A stretch of 64,000 nt of DNA from the NCBI GenBank assembly GCA_965243395.1, contig CBDEUS010000002.1, forward strand, positions 107,444 to 171,443, in the 5' to 3' direction. A program made the translations under genes and the position numbers. Below are positions 14,005-47,461 of this stretch, one piece after another (positions within the stretch are counted from its first letter, which is position 1; the number at the start of each line of letters is the position of its first letter). Source of the stretch: Gammaproteobacteria bacterium (GTDB taxonomy: Bacteria > Pseudomonadota > Gammaproteobacteria > UBA4575). A model generated the notes under the pieces. It was not told where the DNA came from. It did no database searches and saw only the letters and a program-made list of their open reading frames with translations.

Positions 14005-14049
14005 TGGTAGCCAGCGGCAGAATCGAACTGCCGACATGAGGATTTTCAG
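14005..14049 (-). repeat. direct repeat 1: 3' half of a tRNA-Phe(GAA) gene (anticodon loop to CCA), att-site remnant
   Basis: minus strand reads CTGAAAATCCTCATGTCGGCAGTTCGATTCTGCCGCTGGCTACCA: Phe anticodon loop, GTGTC-type variable loop, T-arm and acceptor 3' strand, no 5' half; 42/45 identical to 47417-47461. Confidence 0.75.
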
Positions 14050-14510
14050 AATCACCCGAAATTATTCTCATCTAATAATACCAGTTTCCTCAATCTCAAT
14101 TATGTGGATAAGAGTATCACCAAACAGCTTTGCACTTTGTCAGTACATGTGTATGCGCGTGTTAGATGTCACTATTAACAATGGTATATAACAGAGAAGC
14201 AACAGCCACGTACAACTAAGCAGTAGCTATCACATTTGAGTAAAAAGCTCTTTTGGAAGTTTTATCGTTCTCTGCTTTTGCATGCTTAGTACCCATATGA
14301 GCTGTAAGAGCTAGATCATATGCTCTTATATTACTTTACAAATTTTATTTACGTAAAAGTATGTTCATCGTTAAAAAATGTCCGTTTATTTCTAAAACGA
14401 TGCCATATAACTCTATTTGGCTGGTGAATTATGACTCTACAAGAAGAATAAATTTTTATTCGTTCCTGCCGATAAATTCTTAATTCAATTTACTTTCTAG
14501 CAACAACACA

Positions 14511-15980
14511 ATGAATACAATCAAACTTATTGCTTTATCACTTTTTTCTTTATTTATTCTATTTCCTTTTAATGCGTACGCAGCAACTGCATCACATGAA
14601 ATACAAAATTTTACGACGCACTGGGCTGGAATTCTTGCATTAGTTATATTTGCAATTTCTTATTCTCTGGTAATTTTTGAAGAGCAATTACACTTAAGAA
14701 AATCCAAACCAGTACTTGTTTCTGCCGGTATAGTTTGGCTAATAGTTGCACTTGTATACATATCACATGGAGACACTCATACAGCTGAAGTATTAGTTCG
14801 TCATAATATTCTTGAGTTTGCAGAGTTGTTTTTATTCTTACTCGCTGCAATGACATTTATTAATACAATGTACGAGCGGGGGATATTTGACTGGCTGCGT
14901 GCATGGATGTTGAAAAAAGGATTTAGTCTACGAGGTGTGTTTTGGGCAACAGGTGTTGTTTCATTTTTCCTTTCACCCATAGCGGATAACCTTACAACAG
15001 CTTTACTTATGGCCACCGTCGCCATGGCTGTGGGTGGCACCAATATCAAGTTCACAAGTATCGCTTGTGTCAATATTGTCGTTGCCGCAAATGCCGGTGG
15101 TGCATTCAGCCCATTTGGTGATATCACCACATTAATGGTTTGGCAAAAAGGAATCGTTGAGTTCCAAGAGTTCTTTGTATTATTCATTCCATCAGTGGTG
15201 AATTGGATAATACCTGCAGTAATTTTAAGTTTCTTCATTTCTAACTCAAAACCAGAAAGTGTTCATAAAGAAGTCGTACTACGACAAGGTGCATGGATTG
15301 TAGTAATTTTATTTTTACTAACGATTGCAATGGCTGTATGCACACATAACTTCTTACACCTCCCTCCTGTCCTCGGCATGATGACAGGCTTAGGAATACT
15401 CAAGTTTTTTGGGTATTACTTAAAAATGACAGACAAAGACTCATTTGAAGGAGAAGGAATTGATGAGATTGAAGACGAAGCACTAGATATTGAAGATGAT
15501 GCGACACCAGTAGAATATGAACAAAAAAGACTGCATGAAAAATTTGATATATTCAAATCGATAGAACGTGCCGAGTGGGACACCCTCATGTTTTTTTACG
15601 GTGTTATTTTAAGCGTAGGTGGATTGGGTGCACTGGGTTACATGGCGCTAGGATCCGAATTAATGTATGAAGGGTTAGGTGCTACGAATGCAAATATTCT
15701 TGTAGGTTTCCTTTCTGCATTATTCGACAACATCCCAGTGATGTTTGCGGTACTCGCCATGGAACCGGCAATGAGCCATGGTCAATGGCTGCTTGTAACT
15801 TTAACCGCCGGTGTCGGTGGCTCTATGCTTTCTATTGGGTCGGCTGCAGGCGTTGCCGTAATGGGACAAGCACGCGGAATTTATACATTCTTTGCACATT
15901 TGAAATGGTCTTGGGCCATAGCACTCGGTTATGCCGCAAGTATATGGACACATTTTCTAGTGAATGGAAATTTATTTTAG
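14511..15980 (+). CDS. NhaD/ArsB-superfamily ion transporter (NhaD-like Na+/H+ antiporter)
   Basis: 489 aa, signal-like N-terminus, multiple TMs, SPFGDITT motif, central acidic loop. Confidence 0.6.
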   Translation: MNTIKLIALSLFSLFILFPFNAYAATASHEIQNFTTHWAGILALVIFAISYSLVIFEEQLHLRKSKPVLVSAGIVWLIVALVYISHGDTHTAEVLVRHNILEFAELFLFLLAAMTFINTMYERGIFDWLRAWMLKKGFSLRGVFWATGVVSFFLSPIADNLTTALLMATVAMAVGGTNIKFTSIACVNIVVAANAGGAFSPFGDITTLMVWQKGIVEFQEFFVLFIPSVVNWIIPAVILSFFISNSKPESVHKEVVLRQGAWIVVILFLLTIAMAVCTHNFLHLPPVLGMMTGLGILKFFGYYLKMTDKDSFEGEGIDEIEDEALDIEDDATPVEYEQKRLHEKFDIFKSIERAEWDTLMFFYGVILSVGGLGALGYMALGSELMYEGLGATNANILVGFLSALFDNIPVMFAVLAMEPAMSHGQWLLVTLTAGVGGSMLSIGSAAGVAVMGQARGIYTFFAHLKWSWAIALGYAASIWTHFLVNGNLF

Positions 15981-15998
15981 CGATTAAAATTAATACTA

Positions 15999-16805
15999 AT
16001 GGTTAATCTAGATAATAATATTAAGAAAAAGAAGCTGAGTAAAAAATACTACCAAAAAGAATTACTACACTTACAAAAAGAACTCATCAAATTACAAGAA
16101 TGGGTAAAACAAGAAAAATTACGTGTAGTAGTAGTATTTGAAGGACGCGATGCTGCGGGTAAAGGCGGTGTAATTAAACGCATTATGCAACACCTAAACC
16201 CACGTATATGTCATATTGTTGCACTCGGCACCCCTAGCGATCGTGAACGCAGTCAGTGGTATTTTCAACGCTATGTTGCGCATCTTCCTGCTGCCGGAGA
16301 AATCATGCTATTTGATCGCAGCTGGTACAACCGTGCAGGTGTGGAACGCGTAATGGAGTTTTGTAATGATGATGAATATTGGCAGTTTTTACGCGACTGT
16401 CCTCAGTTTGAAAGAATGTTAATTCAATCTGGCATCATTCTTCGAAAATATTGGTTCTCGGTCAGCAACGAAGAACAAGAACGTCGTTTTCAAGCAAGAA
16501 ATAATGAGCCAACTAAACGCTGGAAACTCAGCCCAATGGATATTGAAGCACGCAACCGGTGGAATGACTATTCACGCGCCAAAGACATTATGTTCGATCA
16601 TACAGATATTCGTGAAGCACCTTGGCATATTGTTGATGCAGATAATAAAAAACGTGCACGTCTAAATTGTATAAGCCATCTACTTAGTTCAATTGACTAC
16701 AAAGATCTAACACCAAAAGTGTCTAAGCTACCGACACGCGTTATAAAGAACAACTATGTCCGTGCACCTATAAATAAAAATAATCTTGTTGACCAAGGTT
16801 ATTAA
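15999..16805 (+). CDS. ppk2: polyphosphate kinase 2 family protein
   Basis: Walker A GRDAAGKGG, PPK2 core VVVFEGRDAAGKGGVIKRIMQHLNPR, lid region FDRSWYNR. Confidence 0.8.
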   Translation: MVNLDNNIKKKKLSKKYYQKELLHLQKELIKLQEWVKQEKLRVVVVFEGRDAAGKGGVIKRIMQHLNPRICHIVALGTPSDRERSQWYFQRYVAHLPAAGEIMLFDRSWYNRAGVERVMEFCNDDEYWQFLRDCPQFERMLIQSGIILRKYWFSVSNEEQERRFQARNNEPTKRWKLSPMDIEARNRWNDYSRAKDIMFDHTDIREAPWHIVDADNKKRARLNCISHLLSSIDYKDLTPKVSKLPTRVIKNNYVRAPINKNNLVDQGY

Positions 16806-16929
16806 CTTTTTTAGATCAAACTTTTGGATGTCAGTGTTTAAGCTGAAATGTTAACTCTTCTTTTAATTGCGAATAGAAGATCTTCTATCCTCTATTCCTG
16901 AGTATATTGATAAGGGGAACACCAATCCT

Positions 16930-16966
16930 CATAGCTCTATGTGCTAAAAGATGACACATAGAGCTT
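16930..16966. terminator. hairpin between convergent ppk2 and flotillin genes
   Basis: inverted repeat CATAGCTCTATGTG...CACATAGAGCT; flanks not strongly T-rich. Confidence 0.35.
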
Positions 16967-20743: not shown

Positions 20744-21019
20744 TTGTCAACAAATATCATATGGGTACAACAAACCACAATAATACAAATAGTTACAAAT
20801 TATCTAAATAGCTAAAAATGACGCTCGACTGGAATTATTAAGTCTCTATCAGTTTTTGATCACACTGCAAAGACGGATATTGAGAAATAAACATTAAAAA
20901 TTTGAGTAGATTAAGGGAGATGTACTCCTCTAATCACCTCAGAATTGGCGTATTGATAACGACTAGTTAGTGAATACCACTTATCTGGATAAGAATATCC
21001 ACCTAATTTCCACCAAATT

Positions 21020-23056: not shown

Positions 23057-23476
23057 TTAAAATCGATCATTACCTTTAATCTCTAGGTTGTTTATTTTTG
23101 TTTTACCTAAAATTTTTAGTAATAAGTTTCGACAAGAACGTAATACTGGATATAAAAAATATGATCGAGCTTTGGATTTGAATATCCAATAATTTAATCT
23201 ATTGAAAATGCCGGACTTGCTGCTAATTAAAGCCAGCGCATGTATTGCATCTGAGCCATAGAAAATTTTATCATTCATCTTCAGTACCATCCCTTGGTCA
23301 ATGTCTAACCCCATCTTGGTAATTTCCTCACGCACATCACTTTCCTCGCGTGCATCAACTATTTTTAGATTTCCAATATCTTCACGAATGCGAACAACTT
23401 GGCAGTAGTTATTACACGCCGGGCATTCCTTGTCGTACACAAGTAAAATTTCTTCTTTATCCATGATCATTAACAA
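23057..23476 (-). CDS. DCC-type thiol-disulfide oxidoreductase (DUF393)
   Basis: 139 aa, CPACNNYC near N-terminus. Confidence 0.65.
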   Translation of the reverse strand: MLMIMDKEEILLVYDKECPACNNYCQVVRIREDIGNLKIVDAREESDVREEITKMGLDIDQGMVLKMNDKIFYGSDAIHALALISSKSGIFNRLNYWIFKSKARSYFLYPVLRSCRNLLLKILGKTKINNLEIKGNDRF

Positions 23477-24386
23477 TTATTTCTGACACGAGAAACTCTG
23501 CCATCTTTTTAACACCATATCTTTCCAAAGGCTCGAAGTACCACGAAGGATCTAATTTTCGGTCAAACATAATATTCAGCCTGACACGTGTCTCATTTTC
23601 TGAAATTTTTTCAAGTTCAACATGCGTGCCTTTAAAATCAATATAGTTTGATATGTAACTCGTGTCTTTCAAAATTTCTGTCTTTAGGTAGTCATCTCCC
23701 ACATCTGCAATTTTTAATTCTGTATGACCTTCATGAATATTTGTGAAAAACCATTTCTTGTATCGATAGTAAATTTTGTGAACTGCACCTTTGTCTATAT
23801 TTCCGGCCTCTACTTTGTACGGCATTGGGAACATTCTTAGAAACCAATGCCTCTCTTTTTGCAAGTCAATTGGTCTAACCATCCTTTCTTTTATTGTTTC
23901 AATATCAAATGAAACTACTGTTTCAAAACTTACTGTATTATCCCTATCAAAGCTTAAATCTTCATGTGTACCTTCAAACGCAGAAATAAGAACTATTAAG
24001 GGAAGCAAATGCACATATAAACTTCCTTTTCCTTTACCTTTTACTTTTCTCCAAATAAGTTCATAAATAAACCCTAATGTCATCACACCAAAATAAATTG
24101 GCATAAACATCACTACACATAAAAATCCTTCAAATAAAAGGACTGAGCTTCCCAGCATCACAATCAATGAACCTCTTGCAACATTCCAATAACCAGTCCA
24201 CCAATTTTTCTTAGGCTCTTGTCTACTTGTCATCACAGCAAGTATCACTGCAATTAAGAAAGGAGCAGCAACATATAACAATGCAGAGTTATGAAAGTTG
24301 TACCCAATTAATAAACGTACCGCTAGCGATCCAATTGCAGCTAGAAATAATAAAAATAAAATTGTTTTAGTATTCATTTTTCTCAA
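23457..24386 (-). CDS. hypothetical membrane protein with soluble C-terminal domain
   Basis: 309 aa; four N-terminal TMs then ~180-aa soluble domain. Confidence 0.5.
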   Translation of the reverse strand: MRKMNTKTILFLLFLAAIGSLAVRLLIGYNFHNSALLYVAAPFLIAVILAVMTSRQEPKKNWWTGYWNVARGSLIVMLGSSVLLFEGFLCVVMFMPIYFGVMTLGFIYELIWRKVKGKGKGSLYVHLLPLIVLISAFEGTHEDLSFDRDNTVSFETVVSFDIETIKERMVRPIDLQKERHWFLRMFPMPYKVEAGNIDKGAVHKIYYRYKKWFFTNIHEGHTELKIADVGDDYLKTEILKDTSYISNYIDFKGTHVELEKISENETRVRLNIMFDRKLDPSWYFEPLERYGVKKMAEFLVSEIIVNDHG

Positions 24387-25276
24387 CCTATTAGTTGCAA
24401 ATCATCTCTTAGCACTTCAGCTCTCGGGATTCCGATATTGCTTGCGAGATTTAAATGCTTAAGAATTTGGATAACTCTCCATCCTGGATCACATTGACCT
24501 TTTTCAATGCCAATTTGGGCAGATTCTGGAAATGCATGATGATTGTTGTGCCAACATTCCCCATAGGTGGCAACGCCCAGTCCAGGAATATTAGATGCTT
24601 GAACATATGCATCTTTAACCCGCCAATTACCAGGCCCGGGATTGTGACAAAAGTACGTGATTGTCCAGTGACCAACTACGCTGACGGACACTCTTACAAA
24701 TACACCCCATACAACCCAAGACCAACCTCCAAATAAATATAAAGGAACCGCTAAAAGTAGTTGGTGGAATCTCCAGGTTTTCTCCATAAATACAAACCAT
24801 GGATCCTCAGCAATCTCTTTTTCAATGATTATTTTTGGAGGCTTTGCATAGTTAAATTTAGATGTTAACTGCCACCAAATATCTAAAAAGAAATTTCTTC
24901 GATGGGAGAAAAAGTCATGACACTCATTTTGTCGTTGCGCCCAATCCCTTTGATCATGAATACGAATAACGCCAAACGGACCTGCCATGCCAACCAAAAC
25001 CCCAACATATACAAGTAGTCTTGATGCCCACTTAGGAGATTCAAACGTTCTATGAATAAGTAAGCGATGCATTCCAACACTATGCCCAATTAGAAGAGAA
25101 AAGTAAGTTGTCACAACAAATAGTGTAAAAGCACTCCAAGTGAAAGTGATGGGGGCTAATATCACTGCTAGCAATATCATTGATAAATTCCAAGCAGCTT
25201 TTTTAGAATCGATACTAATAGTTCCCTCATTAGCTGAAGCATGTGTAGCCTTAATTCTTAAAACTGGTTTCATCAT
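24383..25276 (-). CDS. membrane fatty-acid desaturase-like His-box protein (paralog 1)
   Basis: His boxes GMHRLLIHRTF and WHNNHHAFP; canonical HxxHH second box replaced by HDQRDWAQRQNECHDFFSH. Confidence 0.6.
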   Translation of the reverse strand: MMKPVLRIKATHASANEGTISIDSKKAAWNLSMILLAVILAPITFTWSAFTLFVVTTYFSLLIGHSVGMHRLLIHRTFESPKWASRLLVYVGVLVGMAGPFGVIRIHDQRDWAQRQNECHDFFSHRRNFFLDIWWQLTSKFNYAKPPKIIIEKEIAEDPWFVFMEKTWRFHQLLLAVPLYLFGGWSWVVWGVFVRVSVSVVGHWTITYFCHNPGPGNWRVKDAYVQASNIPGLGVATYGECWHNNHHAFPESAQIGIEKGQCDPGWRVIQILKHLNLASNIGIPRAEVLRDDLQLIG

Positions 25277-25286
25277 AATCAGTACC

Positions 25287-26267
25287 TCAATTATTTGTAG
25301 CTAATGTTGTCTTGGTGTTATCCAAATCATATTGCCCAGGAAGTTTTCTTTTAGTTATGGATTTAAGTTCTTTTCTTAATGGCATGTCTTCTGGAAGTTT
25401 TATATCCCATACAAGACCAATCTCAGATAAAAACATTAACACCCACCATCCCGGATCAACTTGATCTTCATAAATACCTAATAACGCAGAGCCGGGATAA
25501 GCATGATGATTATTGTGCCAACACTCTCCCATAGTGATCCAACCTGTATATTTAATGTTATATCCTTGAACGGCGGCACCTTCAACTTCCCAATCACGAT
25601 GACCTTCGTTATGTGCAAAGTAACCAATTAACCAATGCCCAGTAACAGAAACACTAACGCGGCAGCAGATGCCCCAAATAACCCAAGAAATACCTCCAAA
25701 ATAGAAAAGTAATATTGCCCACGGTAATTGTTGCAACATCCATGTGTTCTCCATGAATTTATAAACTTTGTCATTTGAAATTCGTGTTTCTGGCTCAAAT
25801 AAAGGTGGGTTATCAAGATTCAAATCACAATGTATTTGCCACCATCCATCTTTAAGAAAACTATTTCCATGACAGAAATAATCATGGCACTCACTTTGTC
25901 GCTGTGCCCAATCTCGTATATCGTGTGTTTTAACCATTCCGATTGGCCCAGCCATTCCTACTAATGTTCCCAAGTGAACAAAAAAATATTCAATCCACTT
26001 AGGACATTCATAACTGTTATGTATTAATCTACGATGCATCCCTAATGAATGCCCTAAACAAAGCGTTGTTGCAGTGAAAATAATAAATACGAAAAAAGCA
26101 CTGAGTGAGAACGTTAAATAGCCACCAACTAATGACGAAACATACATACTTGTAATCCAAATTGATTTTTTGGGTGACCATCTCACTGTTCCATTTATTG
26201 GATTCGCGCCATTCGTATCATTAATTCTTGGCACTCCATTATTTGTATTCATCGTTACACCCCCCAT
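25287..26267 (-). CDS. membrane fatty-acid desaturase-like His-box protein (paralog 2)
   Basis: same boxes: GMHRRLIHNSY, THDIRDWAQRQSECHDYFCH, WHNNHHAYP; tandem paralog. Confidence 0.6.
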   Translation of the reverse strand: MGGVTMNTNNGVPRINDTNGANPINGTVRWSPKKSIWITSMYVSSLVGGYLTFSLSAFFVFIIFTATTLCLGHSLGMHRRLIHNSYECPKWIEYFFVHLGTLVGMAGPIGMVKTHDIRDWAQRQSECHDYFCHGNSFLKDGWWQIHCDLNLDNPPLFEPETRISNDKVYKFMENTWMLQQLPWAILLFYFGGISWVIWGICCRVSVSVTGHWLIGYFAHNEGHRDWEVEGAAVQGYNIKYTGWITMGECWHNNHHAYPGSALLGIYEDQVDPGWWVLMFLSEIGLVWDIKLPEDMPLRKELKSITKRKLPGQYDLDNTKTTLATNN

Positions 26268-34644: not shown

Positions 34645-34720
34645 TGGTAGCCCGAATCCGATTCGAACGGATAACTTTCGCTTTGTAAGAACGACACTCT
34701 GCCAATTGAGTTATCGGGCT
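34645..34720 (-). tRNA. tRNA-Val (UAC)
   Basis: T-arm ATCCG-ATTCGAA-CGGAT, anticodon loop TTGTAAG, acceptor AGCCCGA/TCGGGCT. Confidence 0.65.
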
Positions 34721-34728
34721 AAAATTTT

Positions 34729-34800
34729 TGGTAGTTACGGTTAGAATCGAACTAACAAGTCCAGGGTTATGAGCCCTAGCCGAAGACCACTTCCGTAACT
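34729..34800 (-). tRNA. tRNA-Met (CAU), initiator-like anticodon stem, shortened D-arm
   Basis: RNA anticodon arm TAGGG-CTCATAA-CCCTG (GGG/CCC stem as in initiators); only 12 nt between anticodon arm and acceptor (4-bp stem, 4-nt loop); total 72 nt. Confidence 0.5.
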
Positions 34801-34808
34801 AAAGTATT

Positions 34809-34882
34809 TGGTGGATCCAGTAGGAGTCGAACCTACCTCTGCGGGTTAAAAGCCCGCTGCACAACCGCTATGCCATAGATCC
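34809..34882 (-). tRNA. tRNA-Lys (UUU)
   Basis: T-arm GTAGG-AGTCGAA-CCTAC, anticodon arm GCGGG/TTAAAAG/CCCGC. Confidence 0.7.
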
Positions 34883-34883
34883 T

Positions 34884-34959
34884 TGGCACGCCTGAAAGGA
34901 GTTGAACCTTTATCTCACTGGTTCGAAGCCAGTGGCTCTTCCAATTAAGCTACAGACGT
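34884..34959 (-). tRNA. tRNA-Arg (UCG)
   Basis: T-arm AAAGG-AGTTGAA-CCTTT, anticodon arm ACTGG/TTCGAAG/CCAGT. Confidence 0.65.
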
Positions 34960-34961
34960 AT

Positions 34962-35052
34962 TGGCGGAGAAGAACAGATTCGAACTGTTGAATGAAAAAT
35001 TTCCATCCCTCCTTTAGCAAAGGAGTGCTTTAAACCACTCAGCCACTTCTCC
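34962..35052 (-). tRNA. tRNA-Ser (GCU), class II
   Basis: 91 nt; T-arm AACAG-ATTCGAA-CTGTT, 19-nt variable arm, anticodon arm CTCCT/TTAGCAA/AGGAG. Confidence 0.7.
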
Positions 35053-35112
35053 AATTTATAATTTGCAGCGCTTCGCGATATTTAATTTGCGAGTAATACC
35101 CACTCGCAAGCG

Positions 35113-35188
35113 TGGGGTGAACTACCGGACTCGAACCGGTATCTACCAGATTCACGTTCTGGGGCTTTGCCATTAAGCTAAGCTCACC
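35113..35188 (-). tRNA. tRNA-His (GUG) with encoded G-1 and C73
   Basis: T-arm ACCGG-ACTCGAA-CCGGT, anticodon arm CCAGA/TTCACGT/TCTGG (anticodon GTG, position 33 = C), C73, extra 5' G at 35188. Confidence 0.65.
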
Positions 35189-35199
35189 ATAATTATTTT

Positions 35200-35291
35200 T
35201 GGCGGAAGGCGGAGGGCACGATCCCCACCAACTAAAAAGCCAGCCACCAGTTTTCAAGACTGGGACACCCCCACTGGGTGAATCACCTTCC
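35200..35291 (-). tRNA. tRNA-Ser (UGA), class II, non-canonical T-loop
   Basis: 92 nt; anticodon arm CCAGT/TTTCAAG/ACTGG; T-loop reads GCACGAT rather than ATTCGAA. Confidence 0.5.
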
Positions 35292-35316
35292 TTATATATG
35301 TAAATTTGGAGCGGAT

Positions 35317-35391
35317 AATCGGATTCGAACCGATATTTATGGTTTGGAAGACCATCACTCTGCCAATTGAGTTATACCCGCAGATTTGGTC
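35317..35391 (-). tRNA. tRNA-Gly (UCC)
   Basis: T-arm ATCGG-ATTCGAA-CCGAT, anticodon arm ATGGT/TTGGAAG/ACCAT. Confidence 0.7.
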
Positions 35392-35396
35392 TGAGT

Positions 35397-35474
35397 GGCT
35401 GGATTCGAACCAACGACCTCTCGCTTCCAAGGCGAGTACTCTGCCCAGGCTGAGCTACACTCAGAGAATTAATT
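35397..35474 (-). tRNA. tRNA-Pro (UGG)
   Basis: T-arm GCTGG-ATTCGAA-CCAAC, anticodon arm CTCGC/TTCCAAG/GCGAG, acceptor CTGAGTG/CACTCAG. Confidence 0.65.
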
Positions 35475-35491
35475 AAATATAAAAAATTATT

Positions 35492-35567
35492 TGGTGCATC
35501 GAGTTGGACTTGAACCAACGACCACACGATTATCGGTCGTGCGCTCTACCAACTGAGCTATCGATGC
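35492..35567 (-). tRNA. tRNA-Ile (GAU)
   Basis: canonical D-arm GCTCTACCAACTGAGC, T-arm GTTGG-ACTTGAA-CCAAC, anticodon arm CACGA/TTATCGG/TCGTG (anticodon GAT, position 33 = C), acceptor GCATCGA/TCGATGC. Confidence 0.7.
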
Positions 35568-35568
35568 T

Positions 35569-35644
35569 TGGTGTTCCTGACCAGAATTGAACTGGCATCT
35601 CGAGTTTGAAAGACTCGTGACCTCACCATTAGTCGACAGGAACT
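35569..35644 (-). tRNA. tRNA-Glu (UUC)
   Basis: anticodon arm CGAGT/TTGAAAG/ACTCG, acceptor GTTCCTG/CAGGAAC. Confidence 0.7.
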
Positions 35645-35657
35645 AATAAAATATTTT

Positions 35658-35733
35658 TGGCGGACCCGATCGGACTCAAACCGACATCCCCTTTATCGAC
35701 AGTAAAGTGCTTTATCAATTAAGCTACGAATCC
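35658..35733 (-). tRNA. tRNA-Asp (GUC)
   Basis: anticodon arm CTTTA/TCGACAG/TAAAG, T-arm ATCGG-ACTCAAA-CCGAC. Confidence 0.65.
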
Positions 35734-36088
35734 AACTTTTGTTTAAAGGTTGAGACTATGCCTTTAAAAATCACTCTTTTGTTGAAGTACCTAACGCATT
35801 GCTGTGCGATAGTTGCCAACGTGTCCACATTACCCTGGTTGCTCCAGCGATTATGTTAGTGATCATGACTGCTTTTTTTAAAGTGTAGCGATTCACTTGT
35901 CGCGTTAATCTATTCAGCTATTCACTTACCGAGAACCTTGCCAGGCTCTAAACGGAGGCTATCCGAACGTGCAATGAAGTAACTAAAGTTCTTTGGCTTG
36001 CGACCGCAGAATCTTCCATGTTCCCAAGTGGGCATGGACTTAAGTCATTTTCAATTAACACCGAGACGCGTCTTTGCGTTTCACCGTA
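35734..36088 (-). other. 355-nt non-coding spacer inside the tRNA array; candidate structured or stable RNA
   Basis: no minus-strand ORF, no recognisable tRNA; short palindromes AGACGCGTCT and TGATCA. Confidence 0.25.
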
Positions 36089-36165
36089 TGGTGATCTATG
36101 TGGGAGTCGAACCCACGACCTATTGATTCTAAGTCAATCGCTCTACCAATCTGAGCTAAAAGATC
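36089..36165 (-). tRNA. class-I (77 nt) tRNA with Leu anticodon UAG (second copy)
   Basis: T-arm GTGGG-AGTCGAA-CCCAC, 5-nt variable loop, anticodon arm ATTGA/TTCTAAG/TCAAT (anticodon TAG), canonical D-arm, A73. Confidence 0.6.
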
Positions 36166-36605
36166 AGGTACTACTAAGACGTGCACGTCTCAGTTGCTTC
36201 ATTATTTTTTGAATAACGAAATACAACACGCCTTTTGTCTTTCCTCTGCCGAGTACTTAACCGAATATTCGGATCATGGCTTCCACCCATTTCCCTAATA
36301 ATCTGCACAACCGCACTTGTCTGCAAAACTCGTACTATGTTGTACTACCTGTTATCTCTCGTAGTACGCAATCTAGTATCACGGGTTACAGCACTACCTG
36401 TATCTTTCTCACGACCCGTATTCCCAAGTAAACCTGGTACGTCAATCGTGGTACTTCCGCGTATTGCTTGGCTACTATTGCCGATTGAATTACGACAACA
36501 TGGAGACCAGGCTTGCTTGGTTTGACCTACTTTGAAAAGTGGGCGAAATACCGTAGTCGTATTCCTTTCCTATCGTTGCCGATAGTTATCGTGCCAAGCC
36601 ACATA
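36166..36605 (-). other. 440-nt non-coding spacer inside the tRNA array; candidate ncRNA
   Basis: no minus-strand ORF; 14-bp perfect palindrome AGACGTGCACGTCT at 36176-36189; + strand ORFs here are antisense and implausible. Confidence 0.25.
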
Positions 36606-36681
36606 TTTGGTGGAGGATCACGGATTTGAACCGTGCGCCTTCTGTTTGCAATACAGACGCTCTGCCAACTGAGCTAATCCC
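36606..36681 (-). tRNA. tRNA-Ala (UGC) with G3:U70
   Basis: anticodon arm TCTGT/TTGCAAT/ACAGA; acceptor strands GGGGGAT/ATCCTCC give the G3:U70 Ala identity pair. Confidence 0.75.
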
Positions 36682-36690
36682 CCAAACTTA

Positions 36691-36765
36691 TTTGGCTGCG
36701 ACGGTTGGACTCGAACCAACATTGCTTCGCTTAACAGACGAATGTTCTACCATTGAACTACATCG
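36691..36765 (-). tRNA. tRNA-Asn (GUU)
   Basis: anticodon arm TTCGC/TTAACAG/ACGAA, T-arm GTTGG-ACTCGAA-CCAAC. Confidence 0.65.
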
Positions 36766-36775
36766 CAATTATATT

Positions 36776-36852
36776 TGGTGCATCAGGATGGATTCGAACC
36801 ACCATCGCGTCGGGCTTCAACCGACCGCTCTACCCATTGGAGCTACCGATGC
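36776..36852 (-). tRNA. tRNA-Phe (GAA); sequence differs from the att-site Phe fragments
   Basis: anticodon arm GTCGG/GCTTCAA/CCGAC, D-arm GCTCTACCCATTGGAGC; its T-arm and acceptor differ from the 14005/47417 repeats. Confidence 0.7.
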
Positions 36853-36860
36853 AAAAATAA

Positions 36861-36945
36861 TTGGTGGAGAGAGATGGATTCGAACCACCACGCTAATAAT
36901 TAGCACTGGGTTACAGCCAGCGTGTCTCACCAATGACTGTCTCTC
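36861..36945 (-). tRNA. tRNA-Tyr (GUA), class II
   Basis: 85 nt; 15-nt variable hairpin ACGCTAATAATTAGC; anticodon arm ACTGG/GTTACAG/CCAGC. Confidence 0.65.
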
Positions 36946-36959
36946 CTAAAGTTAAAACT

Positions 36960-37035
36960 GGAGCTGGTGATAGGCGTCGAACCTACAACCTACTGCTTAC
37001 AAAGCAGTTGCTCTGCCATTTGAGCTACACCAGCA
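36960..37035 (-). tRNA. tRNA-Thr (UGU)
   Basis: anticodon arm ACTGC/TTACAAA/GCAGT, acceptor GCTGGTG/CACCAGC. Confidence 0.7.
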
Positions 37036-40768: not shown

Positions 40769-41500
40769 GTGAGTCCATTTGTCATAATTGTCGCTATAGG
40801 GATCAGCATGATCATAATTGAAAGATTGTGGCCAAACGCTGTGTTACCCAATACTCCACGTTGGTGGGCAAGAGCTTTTACATTTAATTTTGCCCAAGCG
40901 TTAATCAGTTTTATTGCGGCGGTTACTTGGGACAAGTGGTTTCCATACTTCAATTTATTTGATATCGACACACTTCCTAACGCTGTTCAAATATTTATTG
41001 GCTACATCACAATTACATTTATCTATTATTGGTGGCATCGTGCACGACATGAAATTCCTTTGCTGTGGAATGTGTTTCACCAAATTCATCATAGTCCAGC
41101 AAGACTAGAGGTAATCACAAGCTTTTATAAACATCCGCTAGAAATATTCGTAAACGGAGTACTATCAAGTTGGTTGTTACATAGCTTATTAGGTGTAACA
41201 CCCACCGTTGCTGCCTCTGTTGTGATGATCACCGGTCTTGCTGAATTCTTTTATCACTGGAATATACGCACACCTTACTGGTTAGGATACTTGTTTCAGC
41301 GCCCAGAAAGTCATCGCGTGCATCATCAGCATGGGCTTCATCATTTTAATTATTCGGATTTACCGGTTTGGGACATGTTATTTGGAACATTCAATAATCC
41401 TAAATCAACACCCATGCAAACAGGATTTGAAATTAAAGATGAATTACAGCTTAAAACCATGTTGCTTGGAAAGCCTGTTGTTAATAGGAAAACATCATGA
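40769..41500 (+). CDS. fatty-acid hydroxylase / sterol desaturase family membrane protein
   Basis: His boxes HRARHEIPLLWNVFHQIHHS and HRVHHQHGLHHFN. Confidence 0.7.
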   Translation: MSPFVIIVAIGISMIIIERLWPNAVLPNTPRWWARAFTFNFAQALISFIAAVTWDKWFPYFNLFDIDTLPNAVQIFIGYITITFIYYWWHRARHEIPLLWNVFHQIHHSPARLEVITSFYKHPLEIFVNGVLSSWLLHSLLGVTPTVAASVVMITGLAEFFYHWNIRTPYWLGYLFQRPESHRVHHQHGLHHFNYSDLPVWDMLFGTFNNPKSTPMQTGFEIKDELQLKTMLLGKPVVNRKTS

Positions 41501-41994
41501 AGCATAAAATAATTTTTTTATTCTTAATATTCATAGGCAGTGTACGCGCAGTTGCAGATATTGGTGGATATTCAAACGTATCTTCGTTTTTCTCATTATT
41601 TAATGCATCACCCGCTATGAAAGTTTTCACGGCACACAAAAATTATGAGACATTTTCACCAATTTTTATGCTTGATTTTCATGGAAACAATGGTGCTTCC
41701 ACATCTGTTGAATTAACACCTGAACTCTATAGAAAATTAGAAGGCCCTTACAATCGAAGAAACATATTTGGCGCTGCTATTTCCTATGGTCCTGTTCTCG
41801 TAAGCAATCAAAATACAGCAGATTTATTTTACAGTGTTGCTAGGTATAGTTTTTGTAATCCAGGTAAGCTGATTAAAGAATTAGAAATTGATGTGCCGGA
41901 TGATGTAAACAAAGTGACGGTTCGTTATCTTCATCAAGAAAATGTAAATACTGATTATCCTGTTCAATTGGAGGTGGACTGTGAAAAATTCTAA
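41497..41994 (+). CDS. hypothetical secreted protein
   Basis: 165 aa with signal peptide; 4-nt overlap with the upstream gene. Confidence 0.45.
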   Translation: MKHKIIFLFLIFIGSVRAVADIGGYSNVSSFFSLFNASPAMKVFTAHKNYETFSPIFMLDFHGNNGASTSVELTPELYRKLEGPYNRRNIFGAAISYGPVLVSNQNTADLFYSVARYSFCNPGKLIKELEIDVPDDVNKVTVRYLHQENVNTDYPVQLEVDCEKF

Positions 41995-43219
41995 CTGGAC
42001 TGCTGGTATGTTCGCAATCTTCAGAATTTTACTAGGATCGTATTTAGTAGTGCACTTTCTACATCTTGTACCATGGGGCGCAGAAGTTTTTGGTAACAAT
42101 GGAACGCTACATAGTTCTTCAGTCAGTCCACTCATGGGTATCATACCGAACCCACTAAACACATTAGGTGATAGTTATTTTATAAGTGTATTACTTGTGA
42201 TCGGTGCAATAAGTGGAATACTACTTGTATTAGGCAAGTGGGACCGCATAGGTGCTGCTATTTCATTGGTTGTATTAGCATGGCTCTATCAACGAAATCC
42301 TCTGATTGCGAATCCTTCGTTACCATTACTTGGTTGGATGTTGCTTGCTTATTGCTTTATACCTTTAGGAGGAATAGGCCGGGCATTTATAAATAACCGA
42401 GATACGACAAATTTTAACTGGCGATTACCAGGATCTGTATGGTGGGCAGCATGGATCGTATTAGGTGTAGCTTATACATATAGTGGCTATACAAAGTTAT
42501 TAAGTCCATCATGGGTGGACGGCTCTGCAATAAGTATTGTTCTAGAAAATCCTCTAGCAAGAGACTATTTTTTAAATAGTTTCCTTTTATCTATAGATCC
42601 ATGGTTTTTAAAAGGCCTTACGTGGGCAATTACATGGATTGAATTATTATTTCTACCACTAATTGCATTTAAGTCAACGCGATTTATTGTGTGGGCGTTG
42701 ATGTTGATTGTGCAGTTTGGCTTTCTTTTCTTGCTTAACTTTGCAGATTTAACGTTTCCAATGTTGCTTATCCATTTATTGCTATTCGACCCTCAATGGA
42801 TCAAACCAAAGCCAAATAAAAAAGAAACGATTTTCTATGATGGAAATTGTGCATTGTGTCATTCTGTTATACGCCTTGCATTATCTGAAATGCCAAGAGG
42901 ACGATACACATTTTCACCACTTCAAGGTAAATTGTTTGAAAATGCAATTCCAGAAAGTGCACGTTCACAATTACCCGATTCCTTTCTCGTTCTTACAAGT
43001 GACAATAAAGTGAAAGTCGAAGGTGATGCAGTTTTGCATGTGCTTCGTAGCTTTGGAGGACTGTGGTACTTATTAGGAACAGCTTTGAGTATTTTACCCA
43101 AAGTGATAATAAATTTCGGATATCGGGTTGTAGCAATAGTAAGATACCGATTATTTGGAACAAAAAGTAATTTGTGCCCGATAGTACCAACTGAATTCCA
43201 AAAATTATTCGTTAGTTAA
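41981..43219 (+). CDS. HTTM-like membrane domain fused to DCC thiol-disulfide oxidoreductase domain
   Basis: N-terminal ~290-aa polytopic HTTM-like domain; C-terminal FYDGNCALCH... matches the DUF393/DCC motif. Confidence 0.6.
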   Translation: MKNSNWTAGMFAIFRILLGSYLVVHFLHLVPWGAEVFGNNGTLHSSSVSPLMGIIPNPLNTLGDSYFISVLLVIGAISGILLVLGKWDRIGAAISLVVLAWLYQRNPLIANPSLPLLGWMLLAYCFIPLGGIGRAFINNRDTTNFNWRLPGSVWWAAWIVLGVAYTYSGYTKLLSPSWVDGSAISIVLENPLARDYFLNSFLLSIDPWFLKGLTWAITWIELLFLPLIAFKSTRFIVWALMLIVQFGFLFLLNFADLTFPMLLIHLLLFDPQWIKPKPNKKETIFYDGNCALCHSVIRLALSEMPRGRYTFSPLQGKLFENAIPESARSQLPDSFLVLTSDNKVKVEGDAVLHVLRSFGGLWYLLGTALSILPKVIINFGYRVVAIVRYRLFGTKSNLCPIVPTEFQKLFVS

Positions 43220-43223
43220 AACT

Positions 43224-43658
43224 ATGAGCAAGAGTAGTAAATATGCAATTGTTCTTTGGGTATTGCTTGGACTTTTCTGTTTTCGAGTACTTGCACAACT
43301 ATTTCAATTTATTTTTGATAGCCCATTTTTGCCACCGTTTGATGCTTGGTACAGCGGAGCGTTGGCCTATCCTTATTTGCTGATTTCTCAGGTGCTGATT
43401 ATCAGTATTTATTCATTTATCTGCATTCAATTTACCAAAGGTGTCTTTACGCCATCTAATCGGGTAGGAGTATTTTTCTTAGCAATTGGGGGCGTTTATG
43501 TGTGCTTTATGCTAGGAAGATTGCTTATTGGTCAGCTATTTACTTCTTCTGCTTGGTTTCACGCTTACATTCCCATTTTCTTTCATTTTATTCTTGCGCT
43601 ATTCCTAATTGTAGTTGGAATATTTCATATCAGAAATAAGAATATAGATGACTACTGA
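43224..43658 (+). CDS. hypothetical membrane protein
   Basis: 144 aa, 4 TMs. Confidence 0.45.
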   Translation: MSKSSKYAIVLWVLLGLFCFRVLAQLFQFIFDSPFLPPFDAWYSGALAYPYLLISQVLIISIYSFICIQFTKGVFTPSNRVGVFFLAIGGVYVCFMLGRLLIGQLFTSSAWFHAYIPIFFHFILALFLIVVGIFHIRNKNIDDY

Positions 43659-46236
43659 AGCAGTAAATAGATGGTTACCATGGGTTGCATACCCGCTTGG
43701 TATTGGAATAGGGATCTATCTGCATTTAACTATGCTGTCTTGGGGTATTGATATTCAAATTAGTACTTATGTACCAGTATTCCTTGCAGCTGGAATAATT
43801 ACATTGCTTGAGATTTATTTTCCATATTTACAACAATGGAAACCCAATACTCAAGATATAAAAAATGATGCAATGTACATGCTTGTGGTACAAACGATCT
43901 TGCCAAAAGTATTGGCATTTCTTACTGCATTAGTACTGTTACGTTATTCAAACGAAAGTGGATTATTTAATTTAAACCTTTGGCCTCATCACTTACCGGT
44001 TTGGCTTCAGGCAGTGCTAATGATTTTAGTGGCTGATTTTCTCCGTTACTGGCTTCATGTTGCTTCTCATAAAAATCGTTTCTTATGGAGATTTCATGCA
44101 GTTCATCATTCTCCTAAAAAATTGTATTGGATAAACACCGGAAGATTTCATCCCATTGAAGAAGTTGCTCAGTTTTTACTCGATGCTTTACCTTTCATTC
44201 TATTGGGTGTCAGTGAATATGTTTTGGCATTTTATTTCGTTTTCTATGCTATCAATGGTTTTTTTCAGCACTCCAATATAAGACTTAAGTTTGGTGTATT
44301 GAATTACGTAATTAGCACAGCAGAACTACATCGTTGGCATCATTCACGTCTTGAGAATGAATCTAATTCTAACTATGGAAATAACACAATTATCTGGGAT
44401 CTAGTCTTTTGTACAAGATACCTGCCTAGTGATAGAAGCATTGAAAAAATAGGGCTCATTAATTCTAAATATCCCATAACGTTTTTAGATCAACTTAAAA
44501 CACCATTTGTTGGAGGACTGGATAAAAAGTATTTGCCATTGCCTAGCATTAAACAGCTAATTGTGAACGGTTTAATTAAGCTTCAAATGAACATTACCAA
44601 ACATACTATTTGGAAACCTATGCTAAAAGCTGCCATAGACCCTATGCATACGCAATTTAGTTTCCTAAAAAAACTCATTGAAGAAAATGCTGATACTGAA
44701 TTCGGCAAAGAACATCATTTTAAAAAAATTAACTCTTATGAAGATTACTGCAGGCTTGTTCCTATTCAGTCATACGAAAGCTTAAGTCCATATTTTACAA
44801 AACAAGATAAGTTAAAAGAATTTTCGATAAACAGCCAACAACCGTTTATGTATGCCGTTACAAGCGGTACTACGGGTGCATCTAAACTTATACCGATTCT
44901 TGATAAGACAGTTAAACAAAATAAAAAACACCAGAAGCTTTTTACCTATATTCAATACAGAGACAATCCGGGAACATTCAGCGGTAAAATGCTTGGAATT
45001 GTAAGCCCTGCGATTGAAGGATATACAGAGCCAGGTACGCCATTTGGCTCAGTATCTGGTGTTCTATATAAAAACATGCCTTCGATCATGAAATCGAAAT
45101 ATGTGCTTCCATTTGAAATTTTTTCAATTGAAAACTATGACCTTAAATATCAGCTAATTCTTAGGATTGCTCTATCACACAAAGATATCACCTACTTTGT
45201 TACAGCAAATCCATCAACTTTACTATTACTCAACAAAATACTAAACGAGGATATTTCTGTATTAGCAAATGAAATTGAGCAAGGAGATTTTAGAGAATAC
45301 GAAACTTTACCAAAGAGCATCCAAACATTTATTACAAAGAATTTGAAGCCAAATCCTGATCGGGCAAATGAACTACGTCAGCTGATATTGAATAAAAAAG
45401 AAATTACTTTTGCGGATGTGTGGCCACAATTACAAACTGTTGTTACTTGGACGGGTGGTAGTTGTGGTATCGCAATAGATGCGGTTAAGCAAAAACTTCC
45501 AGCCATTACAAAAGTAATCGAGCTAGGTTATATGGCTACTGAAGTCAGAGGGACTATAACAATTGATGCAGAAAAAAATCTTGGTTTACCTACAATTCAA
45601 GATAATTTCTTTGAATTTGTTGAAAGAGATGATTGGGAGAATGAAAAACATAACTTCATAACAATTGATCAACTATCTAAAAACAAAGAATACTATATTT
45701 TCATAACAACAAACTCTGGTCTTTATCGATATTTCATCAACGACATAGTAAGAGTAAATGGAAAAATTGAAAATACACCTACTATTCAATTCATACAAAA
45801 AGGAAAAGGTGTAACTAGTATTACTGGCGAAAAATTATATGAATGTCAGGTTATTGAATCGATGAAACTAACGGAAAAAGAATTTAATTTCTCAAACATT
45901 TTTTACATGATGCTTGCTGATAATGTACATTCAAACTACGAATTATTCATTGAGACACCTGAGAATTATGACCCTCCTTTGGAAGCAATAAGAGACTATA
46001 TTGAGACTTGTCTATGCAAATTAAATATTGAATACCAAAGTAAGCTTGCAAGCGGGAGATTAAAACCACTTTCTTTGCATCATATAAAAAGTGGGACAAG
46101 AGAAAGTTTTAAGAAATTTTATATTGAAAAAGGTCAAAAAGAGAGTCAATTTAAAATCGTGGCACTTCAATATAAGGATGAACTAGAGTTTGATTTTGAG
46201 AATTATATTATAGAATTATTTGAAAAGGCGAGTTAA
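43648..46236 (+). CDS. fusion protein: N-terminal fatty-acid hydroxylase domain + C-terminal GH3-family acyl-acid amido synthetase domain
   Basis: residues ~1-260: TMs and His boxes HVASHKNRFLWRFHAVHHS / HRWHHS; residues ~300-862: GH3 nucleotide-binding motif YAVTSGTTGASKLIP. Confidence 0.65.
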   Translation: MTTEAVNRWLPWVAYPLGIGIGIYLHLTMLSWGIDIQISTYVPVFLAAGIITLLEIYFPYLQQWKPNTQDIKNDAMYMLVVQTILPKVLAFLTALVLLRYSNESGLFNLNLWPHHLPVWLQAVLMILVADFLRYWLHVASHKNRFLWRFHAVHHSPKKLYWINTGRFHPIEEVAQFLLDALPFILLGVSEYVLAFYFVFYAINGFFQHSNIRLKFGVLNYVISTAELHRWHHSRLENESNSNYGNNTIIWDLVFCTRYLPSDRSIEKIGLINSKYPITFLDQLKTPFVGGLDKKYLPLPSIKQLIVNGLIKLQMNITKHTIWKPMLKAAIDPMHTQFSFLKKLIEENADTEFGKEHHFKKINSYEDYCRLVPIQSYESLSPYFTKQDKLKEFSINSQQPFMYAVTSGTTGASKLIPILDKTVKQNKKHQKLFTYIQYRDNPGTFSGKMLGIVSPAIEGYTEPGTPFGSVSGVLYKNMPSIMKSKYVLPFEIFSIENYDLKYQLILRIALSHKDITYFVTANPSTLLLLNKILNEDISVLANEIEQGDFREYETLPKSIQTFITKNLKPNPDRANELRQLILNKKEITFADVWPQLQTVVTWTGGSCGIAIDAVKQKLPAITKVIELGYMATEVRGTITIDAEKNLGLPTIQDNFFEFVERDDWENEKHNFITIDQLSKNKEYYIFITTNSGLYRYFINDIVRVNGKIENTPTIQFIQKGKGVTSITGEKLYECQVIESMKLTEKEFNFSNIFYMMLADNVHSNYELFIETPENYDPPLEAIRDYIETCLCKLNIEYQSKLASGRLKPLSLHHIKSGTRESFKKFYIEKGQKESQFKIVALQYKDELEFDFENYIIELFEKAS

Positions 46237-46244
46237 CCGCAGTC

Positions 46245-47369
46245 ATGCTGATTGAAAACGCCAATCTAAAAAAAATAGATATCCCCTTTGTAGTCTCTTT
46301 TAAACACTCCTCTGCCGAACGATCTAAAACGGAGAGTGTTCTCGTAGAGATGATTTCCAAAAGCAGTATATCTGGTTATGGGGAATCATGTCCAAGAGAA
46401 TATGTAACATCAGAAAATATTGAGAGTGTAAAAGTATTTTTTAATAAAAATATTCTCTCTTTCAAAGATTATGTAAATGACATAGATAGCCTAAAAATTT
46501 GGTTGGGAAACAATATTGAAAGTATTGATCTTAATCCTGCAGCAATGTGTGCTATTGAAATGGCCTTTTTAGATATGTTTTCAAAAAATAAGGGTATATC
46601 AATTGAGAATTCAATAGGCATTCCTGAACTGCAAGGTCAATTTAAATATACAGCAGTAATTGGAGATAGTAGTTCAGAAATATTTTATAGCATTCTTAAA
46701 AAGTATATTGATATGGGTTTTGATGATTACAAAATTAAGCTCTCTGGTATCTTAGAGAAGGATCAAGAAAAATGTCATATATTAAATACTAAACTAACAT
46801 TCCCTTTTCGCTTACGCTTCGATGCTAATAATTTATGGAATAATCATGAAACTGCGATCAGTTACTTATCTAAACTAGATATCGATTATTTTGCAATTGA
46901 AGAACCCCTTACACCAAATGATTATCTAGGTTTAGCCAAACTCTCAAGTGAGCTAAATAAACAAATCATATTAGATGAGAGTTTTTTGAACCTTGGTCAA
47001 TTCGATAACCTCTTTGAAAATCCTGAAATGTGGATAATTAATCTTCGAGTATCAAAAATGGGCGGTTTATTAAGATCAATGAAGATTATTGATATAGCAA
47101 AAAATCATGGGATTAAAATAATTATCGGTGCTCAGGTCGGTGAAACAAGCCTTCTTACAAGAGCAGCTCTAACTATTGCAAATTATGCAAGAGATATTCT
47201 TATTGCCCAAGAAGGTGCGTTTGGAAATTTATTACTGAAATCAGATTTATGTGATTCACCCATTATGTTTGGTAAATCAGGCATCCTTGATTCTTCCAAA
47301 TTACAAACAACCAGCTCTGGCTTTGGGTTTGAACTTAAAAACTACGAACACTTCGAGCAGCTAAGTTAG
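46245..47369 (+). CDS. enolase-superfamily enzyme (MR/MLE subgroup; OSBS / N-acylamino-acid racemase / dipeptide-epimerase-like)
   Basis: catalytic pattern KIKLSG, DANNLW, IEEP, ILDES, NLRVSKMGG. Confidence 0.65.
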   Translation: MLIENANLKKIDIPFVVSFKHSSAERSKTESVLVEMISKSSISGYGESCPREYVTSENIESVKVFFNKNILSFKDYVNDIDSLKIWLGNNIESIDLNPAAMCAIEMAFLDMFSKNKGISIENSIGIPELQGQFKYTAVIGDSSSEIFYSILKKYIDMGFDDYKIKLSGILEKDQEKCHILNTKLTFPFRLRFDANNLWNNHETAISYLSKLDIDYFAIEEPLTPNDYLGLAKLSSELNKQIILDESFLNLGQFDNLFENPEMWIINLRVSKMGGLLRSMKIIDIAKNHGIKIIIGAQVGETSLLTRAALTIANYARDILIAQEGAFGNLLLKSDLCDSPIMFGKSGILDSSKLQTTSSGFGFELKNYEHFEQLS

Positions 47370-47416
47370 TTTGCTACTTAAAGAAATACTATCAAGTTTG
47401 TAAAAAACTGACTCAA

Positions 47417-47461
47417 TGGTGGCCAGGGGCAGAATCGAACTGCCGACACGAGGATTTTCAG
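47417..47461 (-). repeat. direct repeat 2: 3' half of a tRNA-Phe(GAA) gene, att-site remnant
   Basis: minus strand reads CTGAAAATCCTCGTGTCGGCAGTTCGATTCTGCCCCTGGCCACCA; identity to a tRNA ends exactly at the 5' side of the anticodon loop. Confidence 0.75.

Follow-up and report, generated by a model that had tools for sequence, protein, structure and literature searches.

How did two truncated copies of the same tRNA gene come to lie 33.4 kb apart on a bacterial chromosome, with an integrase gene placed just outside the pair? The question is raised by a 64,000-nt stretch of DNA from a gammaproteobacterium of the UBA4575 lineage (assembly GCA_965243395.1, contig CBDEUS010000002.1, positions 107,444 to 171,443 of the forward strand), hereafter denoted the window and numbered from its own first nucleotide. 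An initial annotation, made from the letters alone, described two 45-nt direct repeats in the window, each the 3′ half of tRNA-Phe(GAA), and read them as boundaries of tandem islands at a single tRNA-Phe site. We denote the repeats copy 1 and copy 2, the interval between them X (14050–47416) and the element that starts at 47462 and runs rightward Y. Our analysis indicates that the arrangement probably arose by serial site-specific insertions stacked at one tRNA-Phe(GAA) gene, although the part of the earlier reading that treats X as one discrete island is not demonstrated.

Two displaced 3′ fragments of tRNA-Phe(GAA)

Copy 1 (14005–14049) lies 21 nt from the stop codon of an SBP gene, and copy 2 (47417–47461) lies at the opposite end of X; both have the tRNA sense on the minus strand. 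Their plus-strand sequences are TGGTAGCCAGCGGCAGAATCGAACTGCCGACATGAGGATTTTCAG (copy 1) and TGGTGGCCAGGGGCAGAATCGAACTGCCGACACGAGGATTTTCAG (copy 2), which in the tRNA sense read CTGAAAATCCTCATGTCGGCAGTTCGATTCTGCCGCTGGCTACCA (14049 to 14005) and CTGAAAATCCTCGTGTCGGCAGTTCGATTCTGCCCCTGGCCACCA (47461 to 47417), respectively. The coordinates first reported for the pair are exact, the orientation is direct, and the copies are identical at 42 of 45 positions, in line with the three differences counted previously. A 34-nt core pattern, searched with at most three mismatches, matches copies 1 and 2 only (0.00 matches expected, from 100 shuffles). An ungapped scan of both strands of the window finds no third copy, the runner-up (30 of 45 positions) being a tRNA of the array located within X.

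Each repeat contains the anticodon loop, the 3′ strand of the anticodon stem, the variable loop, the T arm, the 3′ acceptor strand, A73 and the terminal CCA, that is, positions 32–76 of tRNA-Phe(GAA), which confirms its assignment as a 3′ half. Genuine tRNA-Phe genes from many gammaproteobacteria and from Negativicutes match copy 2 with 100% identity over 45–47 nt, including all 45 of its own positions, and none of these alignments continues past 47461, where the anticodon loop has its 5′ edge. The initial annotation had placed the end of tRNA identity at this edge in both copies; the same break nucleotide is present in tRNA-Phe fragments at four other loci (L010, L039, L120 and L128), making six fragments in five genomes.

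Neither ARAGORN nor Rfam calls a tRNA at copy 1 or copy 2, and the 5′ half of tRNA-Phe is absent across the window when up to 6 mismatches in 31 are allowed, so that neither copy is complete and, as had been stated, the window contains no intact gene of this type. A split tRNA, interrupted by an intron or by an insertion that does not restore the gene, is ruled out since the 5′ half is nowhere in the window. The tRNA-Phe gene of the array (36776–36852), already described as different in sequence, matches the host type at 40 of 76 positions and is thereby ruled out as the partner of copy 1.

The two fragments differ in their preservation. Comparison with 121 tRNA-Phe sequences of other genomes having the same core reveals an invariant G at position 44 and an invariant C at position 72, with C or T at position 66. 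Copy 1 carries A44, G66 and T72, none of which occurs at those positions in the 121 sequences. Because these three substitutions never occur in real tRNA-Phe, copy 1 is likely to have been non-functional for longer and to have drifted without selection; judged on its sequence, it appears to be the older, decayed fragment, and it would form the outermost junction. Copy 2 is pristine, matching exactly 19 real tRNA-Phe genes with a CCTGGCC acceptor strand (within the 121), and would be either young or unaltered by chance.

The integrase and the layout of its relatives

The gene to the right of copy 2 (47586–48881, plus strand) is an intact open reading frame (ORF), located where the initial annotation had placed it, and encodes a tyrosine integrase of 431 amino acids. 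It comprises an N-terminal Arm-DNA-bind_3 domain (PF13356, 2.7e-13) and a C-terminal Phage_integrase domain (PF00589, 9.2e-28), and also matches phrog_1 (1.9e-61). The catalytic residues are present in the sequence (R286, K313/315, H376-x-x-R379, W385, H402 and Y413/415). The protein therefore has the P4-type architecture, i.e. an N-terminal Arm-DNA-bind_3 domain combined with a catalytic domain bearing the R-K-H-R-H/W-Y residues; among the 12 matches listed from the phage collection, of which P4 is not one, the closest is the integrase of Pseudomonas phage vB_Pae_U1 (29% identity). Homologues are 85, 59, 59 and 56% identical.

The broken edge of copy 2 and the start of the integrase gene are 124 nt apart, the gene being transcribed away from the fragment. 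The segment between them (47462–47585, plus strand) is a putative P arm and integrase promoter region; it has four AAACGT/ACGTTT motifs, with 4 in 150 nt compared with 0.1 expected, and these form the sole such cluster outside the integrase gene. The motifs are putative arm-type or operator sites. A palindrome, (T)AAACGTTTA, occurs three times in the same region, once upstream of the integrase gene (47526–47535) and twice within it (48095–48104 and 48362–48371), and may likewise be an operator or arm-type site.

The arrangement of a tRNA fragment on the minus strand followed by an integrase gene on the plus strand recurs in L128, L127, L137–L140 and Legionella gratiana (five independent relatives counted). 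At L128 the integrase is 56% identical to that of Y, and a fragment matching copy 2 at 45 of 45 positions lies 121 nt upstream of it on the opposite strand. At L127 (integrase 59% identical) the equivalent place is taken by the displaced 3′ fragment of a tRNA with a CAT anticodon, and at L137–L140 (31% identical) by a 3′ fragment of tRNA-Pro(CGG). A metagenome scan with the integrase profile returned relatives at 31% identity only, and viral contigs, scanned with the tRNA pattern and with the integrase, yielded nothing related.

The most complete comparator is a tRNA-Phe island of approximately 12 kb in L. gratiana Lyon 8420412 (NZ_LNYE01000003.1, approximately 5.1–17.1 kb; L120/L044). Its fragment, at approximately 5.15 kb, lies beside an integrase gene and has the same break nucleotide as copies 1 and 2; the integrase is 23% identical to that of Y, with the same domain architecture. 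The intact tRNA-Phe gene, at approximately 17.1 kb, shares the orientation of the fragment and lies about 12 kb from it, on the side of the integrase gene. The motif GTCTACATGG is present three times beside the integrase gene, with a fourth, inverted occurrence immediately 3′ of the intact tRNA gene; since it occurs at both ends of the island, these ends belong to one element.

Because the relatives show the same layout, copy 2 is the fragment-side (attR-type) junction of the rightward element Y, and the initial proposal that it marks the left end of an integrase-bearing element stands. In this integrase clade the gene normally adjoins the displaced tRNA fragment, not the regenerated tRNA. The position of the integrase outside the repeat pair, which the initial annotation had reported correctly without recognising the pattern, is therefore the usual one for its clade.

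Proposed serial insertion and its alternatives

In the proposed mechanism, an arm-binding tyrosine integrase would recombine the attP site of an element, which carries tRNA-Phe positions 32–76, with a chromosomal tRNA-Phe gene, strand exchange taking place in the anticodon loop, between the two anticodon-stem strands. The copy brought by the element would complete the gene, and the original 3′ half would be moved to the far side of the insert, where it is kept as a 45-nt direct repeat. A first insertion, X, would have displaced the native 3′ half to give copy 1, beside the SBP gene; a second element, Y, entering the regenerated gene, would have displaced the 3′ half supplied by X to give copy 2. 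X would thus have entered as an island, lost its integrase and P arm, been reshuffled, and become the older, immobilised segment of fixed cargo that it now seems to be. The intact tRNA-Phe gene expected on the minus strand at the right end of Y would lie more than 16.5 kb away, beyond position 64000, or would have been lost. This tandem order explains why the copies are in direct orientation and break at the same point, why the outer one is more decayed and why the integrase lies beside the inner one; the decay of copy 1 fits longer non-function, as a tandem array predicts that the outer fragment is the older. Anticodon-centred attP sites and tandem arrays are both documented as common at tRNA genes, accounting for 2083 and 125, respectively, of the 3919 islands in the Islander survey (PMC4383910).

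Several observations weigh against serial insertion. A tblastn search of X with the integrase of Y found nothing better than E = 0.2, and in tetranucleotide composition X correlates with the left core at 0.89 or more, except in the tRNA array (0.75). A pair of CitMHS and PPK2 genes from the left end of X is also found elsewhere, in the contexts of L130 and P0131, with varying neighbours. Neither an empty site nor an SBP-to-pqiC junction was found among related genomes, which are too rearranged, and the nearest relatives of the SBP gene (79–81% amino acid identity; L001 and L006) are followed by other genes, with no tRNA-Phe there. From copy 2 rightward to position 64000 there is no intact tRNA-Phe gene, no 5′ half and no second cluster of P-arm motifs; if the genes at 55–64 kb are core, then the far junction of Y has been lost. 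The end of Y may, however, simply lie past the window, as the related elements L126 and L127 also run for more than 10 kb without a tRNA. Of the tandem-island proposal, then, the assignment of copy 2 as an end of Y is retained, whereas the 14–47 kb segment, which has no integrase or integrase remnant and no compositional signature, is not shown to be, or to have been, one discrete island.

The core-like composition of X and its lack of mobility genes other than one HNH gene could alternatively mean that the interval is native. Two native tRNA-Phe genes approximately 33 kb apart would each have been hit, and the integrase, element and regenerated tRNA on the left would later have been deleted. 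The occurrence of CitMHS–PPK2 as a conserved pair in relatives and the absence of P-arm-like motifs from the broken-side flank of copy 1 are in accord with this, but the deletion would have to begin precisely at the broken edge of the fragment and take the whole tRNA gene, and the interval does hold foreign material (the divergent tRNA array, a GOLLD RNA and the HNH gene). Two full copies close together were, moreover, seen at just 2 of 119 tRNA-Phe loci surveyed in other genomes (among the matches listed for the tRNA-Phe pattern), and both fragments have the orientation and break point that a tandem array predicts; we regard the two-gene origin, the main rival, as unlikely. The flanking of X by att-derived repeats, in tandem with an element whose integrase is intact, also raises the prospect of a live composite, in which X would be cis-mobilisable and would excise together with Y through the action of the Y integrase on copy 1 and the distant tRNA. 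Exchange would fall in the anticodon loop and 3′ stem, which make up the opening 12 nt of each copy and have the same sequence in both; yet copy 1 is decayed, and its edge has neither an anticodon-stem half-site nor AAACGT motifs of the Y type, making such mobility very unlikely in our judgement.

That the repeats are not integrase products at all, and instead reflect chance, decayed duplicated pseudogenes or a chimeric assembly, is scarcely credible. The window does appear to come from a single assembly with no close database relative for cross-checking, but zero chance matches are expected, the same break point is found in six fragments from five genomes, and an intact integrase gene adjoins copy 2 as it does in relatives. 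Three differences between the copies are not what a collapsed or chimeric repeat would give, and a 45-nt repeat is too short to mislead an assembly on the megabase scale. Serial insertion at one tRNA-Phe(GAA) gene thus remains the explanation that we prefer.

Interval X and its left flank

X is a 33.4-kb mosaic segment. No recombinase domain was identified in any X ORF scanned against Pfam and PHROGs, nor were phage structural genes; GC content and tetranucleotide frequencies are uninformative for delimiting foreign DNA here. Under the Islander rule each member of a tandem needs its own integrase (PMC4383910). X has its own displaced fragment, copy 1, without an integrase of its own, and on these sequence features is better termed an att-flanked island remnant than a tandem member.

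Copy 1 is separated from the first gene block by 277 nt of unique, non-coding sequence. This broken-side flank has no anticodon-stem-like half-site, no AAACGT motif and no integrase; if X once had an integrase gene beside copy 1, then it has been deleted cleanly. The block itself, CitMHS–PPK2 (14327–16932, plus strand), is 92.5% identical at the nucleotide level to positions 7713–10331 of the metagenome contig L129, the closest relative of X found. The shared stretch comprises this block alone, with unrelated genes on both sides, which suggests that CitMHS–PPK2 is a block that moves or is repeatedly rearranged. At L128, PPK2 directly adjoins the tRNA-Phe fragment. PPK2 as an ancestral neighbour of tRNA-Phe was considered and is not upheld, there being no tRNA beside PPK2 in L129, L130 or L141.

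Following the CitMHS transporter and PPK2, the left half of X contains, in order, flotillin/YqiJ/PspA genes; genes for fatty-acid desaturases, DCC1-like proteins and an AraC regulator; RlaP and RtcB; and a Band7 gene. The right half contains the tRNA array with its HNH gene, an S15 peptidase gene, and genes for fatty-acid hydroxylases, a GH3/hydroxylase fusion and an enolase-superfamily enzyme (MR_MLE). The RlaP gene, of an RNA-repair nucleotidyltransferase family, and the RtcB RNA ligase gene (28369–30670, minus strand; Pfam RlaP 2.9e-96, RtcB 6.2e-131) are separated by an ORF of 99 amino acids. Lipid-modifying genes are found in two groups (40769–47369, plus strand, and 23057–26267, minus strand), which together encode hydroxylases, DCC1-like oxidoreductases, two desaturases and the enolase-superfamily enzyme; the fused FA_hydroxylase–GH3 protein encoded among them has 862 amino acids. 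GH3 is a family of plant-type acyl-amido synthetases.

A motif, TCCACC-N4-TTCCAYCAA, occurs at four intergenic positions, all on the plus strand (20998–21016, 28338–28356, 54817–54835 and 62051–62069; 0.08 expected). It is thus present in X, in Y and near a terminase gene, and also at 8636–8660 of L127; it may be a binding site for a regulator.

Within the left flank, only the histidine kinase–SBP pair (10321–13983) beside copy 1 has counterparts in the relatives L001 and L006, and across L001–L006 nothing else of the window is shared. In L006 the pair lies between tRNA-Gln/ispE and prs, breaking the usual lolB-ispE-prs-rplY-pth-ychF order. Because it interrupts the ispE–prs order in L006, the ‘core’ left flank has itself been rearranged in this lineage. 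All of the window proteins that were looked up are singletons at 90% identity, and comparison of the window proteins with the 119 listed tRNA-Phe loci revealed no conserved neighbour.

The tRNA array and its GOLLD RNA

The tRNA array (32897–37034, minus strand) comprises 25 tRNAs called by ARAGORN and one to three further tRNA-like genes. Rfam adds a tRNA at 34220–34313 and a weak Sec-like match at 35204–35291 (32.8 bits, below threshold), and a tRNA-like sequence with a CAT anticodon at 34729–34804 is called by neither tool. The array covers 19 amino acids, or all 20 if the sequence at 34729–34804 is a real tRNA-Met. Its tRNA sequences are divergent and do not resemble the host-type tRNA-Phe. 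An HNH endonuclease gene (33194–33760, minus strand) lies inside the array.

Overlooked in the initial annotation, a full-length GOLLD RNA is located within the array (35747–36234, minus strand; Rfam RF02032, model positions 1–416 of 416). Its score of 153.5 bits exceeds the gathering threshold of 150 by a small margin (E = 4.7e-41) and places it in the family. A tRNA-Leu(UAG) gene (36089–36165) is nested in the GOLLD linker. Searches with the array against phage and plasmid nucleotide collections returned generic tRNA similarity only, with no close DNA relative, and the window has no nucleotide similarity to phage records beyond tRNAs. A large tRNA array combined with HNH and with GOLLD carrying a nested tRNA is known from mycobacteria, where it is described as a module spread by horizontal transfer and probably derived from phages (PMC6582537); reports of GOLLD generally place it close to tRNA islands of phages and prophages (PMC12286853). 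The array, GOLLD RNA and HNH gene of X are likely to be horizontally acquired cargo.

The RtcB and RlaP genes lie 2–4 kb from the array and GOLLD, and tRNA supply and repair may, given this proximity, be functionally linked. A more far-reaching idea, which strikes us as quite unlikely, is that X is a cis-mobilisable ‘translation rescue’ island, combining a near-complete foreign tRNA set, the GOLLD nanocage RNA and RtcB/RlaP, that can still be moved by the Y integrase. If true, it would constitute a non-phage vehicle for GOLLD and tRNA arrays among Legionellales-like bacteria, and GOLLD would be physically tied to tRNA repair, for example in defence against anticodon nucleases. The array tRNA-Phe might also, if the native gene has been lost, now serve as the working copy of the cell.

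Other features of element Y

Downstream of the integrase gene, Y encodes an AlpA/Xis-like HTH_17 protein (49394–49660, plus strand), a candidate excision regulator; an HTH_17 gene is kept after the integrase in L126, L127 and L128. It is followed by a gene for a replication-initiator-like protein (HTH_36; 49617–50123, plus strand; identified with Pfam and PHROGs) and by a regulator pair on the minus strand (52647–53610), consisting of an ImmA-like metalloprotease-like protein and an XRE repressor. A second XRE gene (54470–54733, plus strand) is common to the L127 element. Defence-system models gave no convincing match on the cargo of Y.

A tRNA-like gene at 52593–52667 (minus strand) scores 45.9 bits with the Rfam tRNA model, and ARAGORN assigns it a 4-nt anticodon, ‘cagc’. 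It overlaps the 3′ end of the ImmA-like ORF (52647–53270). Its acceptor stem (GGCCAGG/CCTGGCC) is that implied by copy 2, its discriminator is T, and its D, anticodon and T arms are unrelated. With anticodon and T arms that do not correspond to the 45-mer, this gene is ruled out as the regenerated tRNA of Y.

Of the features of an Islander element, Y has the displaced fragment and the integrase, and no regenerated tRNA within the window. The genes at 55–64 kb resemble those of an ordinary chromosome (a methyltransferase, HxlR regulators, DUF899, GFA, an SDR, flavodoxin-like and pqiC/MlaD-like genes, including redox enzymes and pqiBC-like genes). Among them is an isolated small-terminase gene (62154–62609, plus strand; Terminase_2 1e-14, phrog_51), 36 nt from pqiC with no tRNA between the two. 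It may belong to a far part of Y, as a satellite-type feature like those of phage-inducible chromosomal islands (PICIs), or be an unrelated remnant, for example of a prophage. One small terminase and one HNH gene, with no match to capsid, tail, portal or large terminase, do not make the region a prophage. Palindromes resembling repetitive extragenic palindromic (REP) elements, TCCGCTTTnnGCCnnnAGCGGA, are present at 54984–55005 and 55828–55849, with weaker instances at 59016 and 61927; they are limited to 55–62 kb (0.04 expected).

Comparison with known systems

Repeated site-specific insertion at a tRNA gene is a well-established route of genome growth, of which the feature itself bears the textbook marks, and the main use of the present analysis is to annotate the region correctly. 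An integrase clade whose gene lies beside the displaced fragment, with five independent comparators, is an arrangement for which island-finding software must allow. A decayed outer att remnant together with integrase-less, reshuffled cargo also offers a snapshot of islands turning into fixed chromosome.

The P4 and CP4-57-type integrases of the enterobacterial pheV and pheU islands likewise combine Arm-DNA-bind_3 with a catalytic domain and target tRNA-Phe, with an AlpA-like gene downstream and variable cargo. In Escherichia coli K-12 islands such as those at ssrA (intA) and leuX (intB), the integrase gene follows the intact tRNA; here and in the five relatives it instead adjoins the displaced fragment and reads away from it. 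In the accretion of ICESt1 and ICESt3 in Streptococcus thermophilus, which involves cis-mobilisable elements (CIMEs) and integrative and conjugative elements (ICEs), an integrase-less segment with att-derived repeats at its ends and the element encoding the recombinase for that site are arranged in tandem. X, as far as sequence alone can tell, is similarly att-bounded, integrase-less and adjacent to an element with a recombinase for the site, although no conjugation module is seen here and the outer att remnant looks decayed.

The L. gratiana island resembles Y in its tRNA-Phe target, break point and integrase architecture, and in the order of fragment (minus), integrase (plus) and intact tRNA (minus); it differs from the window in being a single island with both ends present, arm-type repeats at both, and no tRNA array. 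Class ‘A’ tDNA islands, as defined by Williams and catalogued in Islander (PMC4383910), share with the present locus a displaced 3′ fragment in direct orientation that starts from the anticodon loop, a tyrosine integrase beside one att junction and several fragments of the same tRNA in series, but here no regenerated full tRNA is seen within the window and X is without an integrase. The array has its nearest counterpart in the ‘32-tRNA cluster’ of Mycobacterium (PMC6582537), which is also large and contains an HNH gene and a GOLLD RNA with a tRNA in its linker. Unlike the mycobacterial and phage GOLLD arrays (PMC6582537, PMC12286853), that of X belongs to a low-GC gammaproteobacterium (uncultured and probably Legionellales-like, to judge from the taxa of SBP homologues and the genomes that share its tRNA-Phe sequence), has no phage structural genes near it, lies 2–4 kb from RtcB/RlaP and is placed between tRNA-Phe att remnants. 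A module of known kind is thus added from a new host lineage, where it lies in a chromosome and outside any prophage; if the RNA-repair neighbourhood of this array of approximately 27 tRNA genes were found to recur, it would provide a testable lead.

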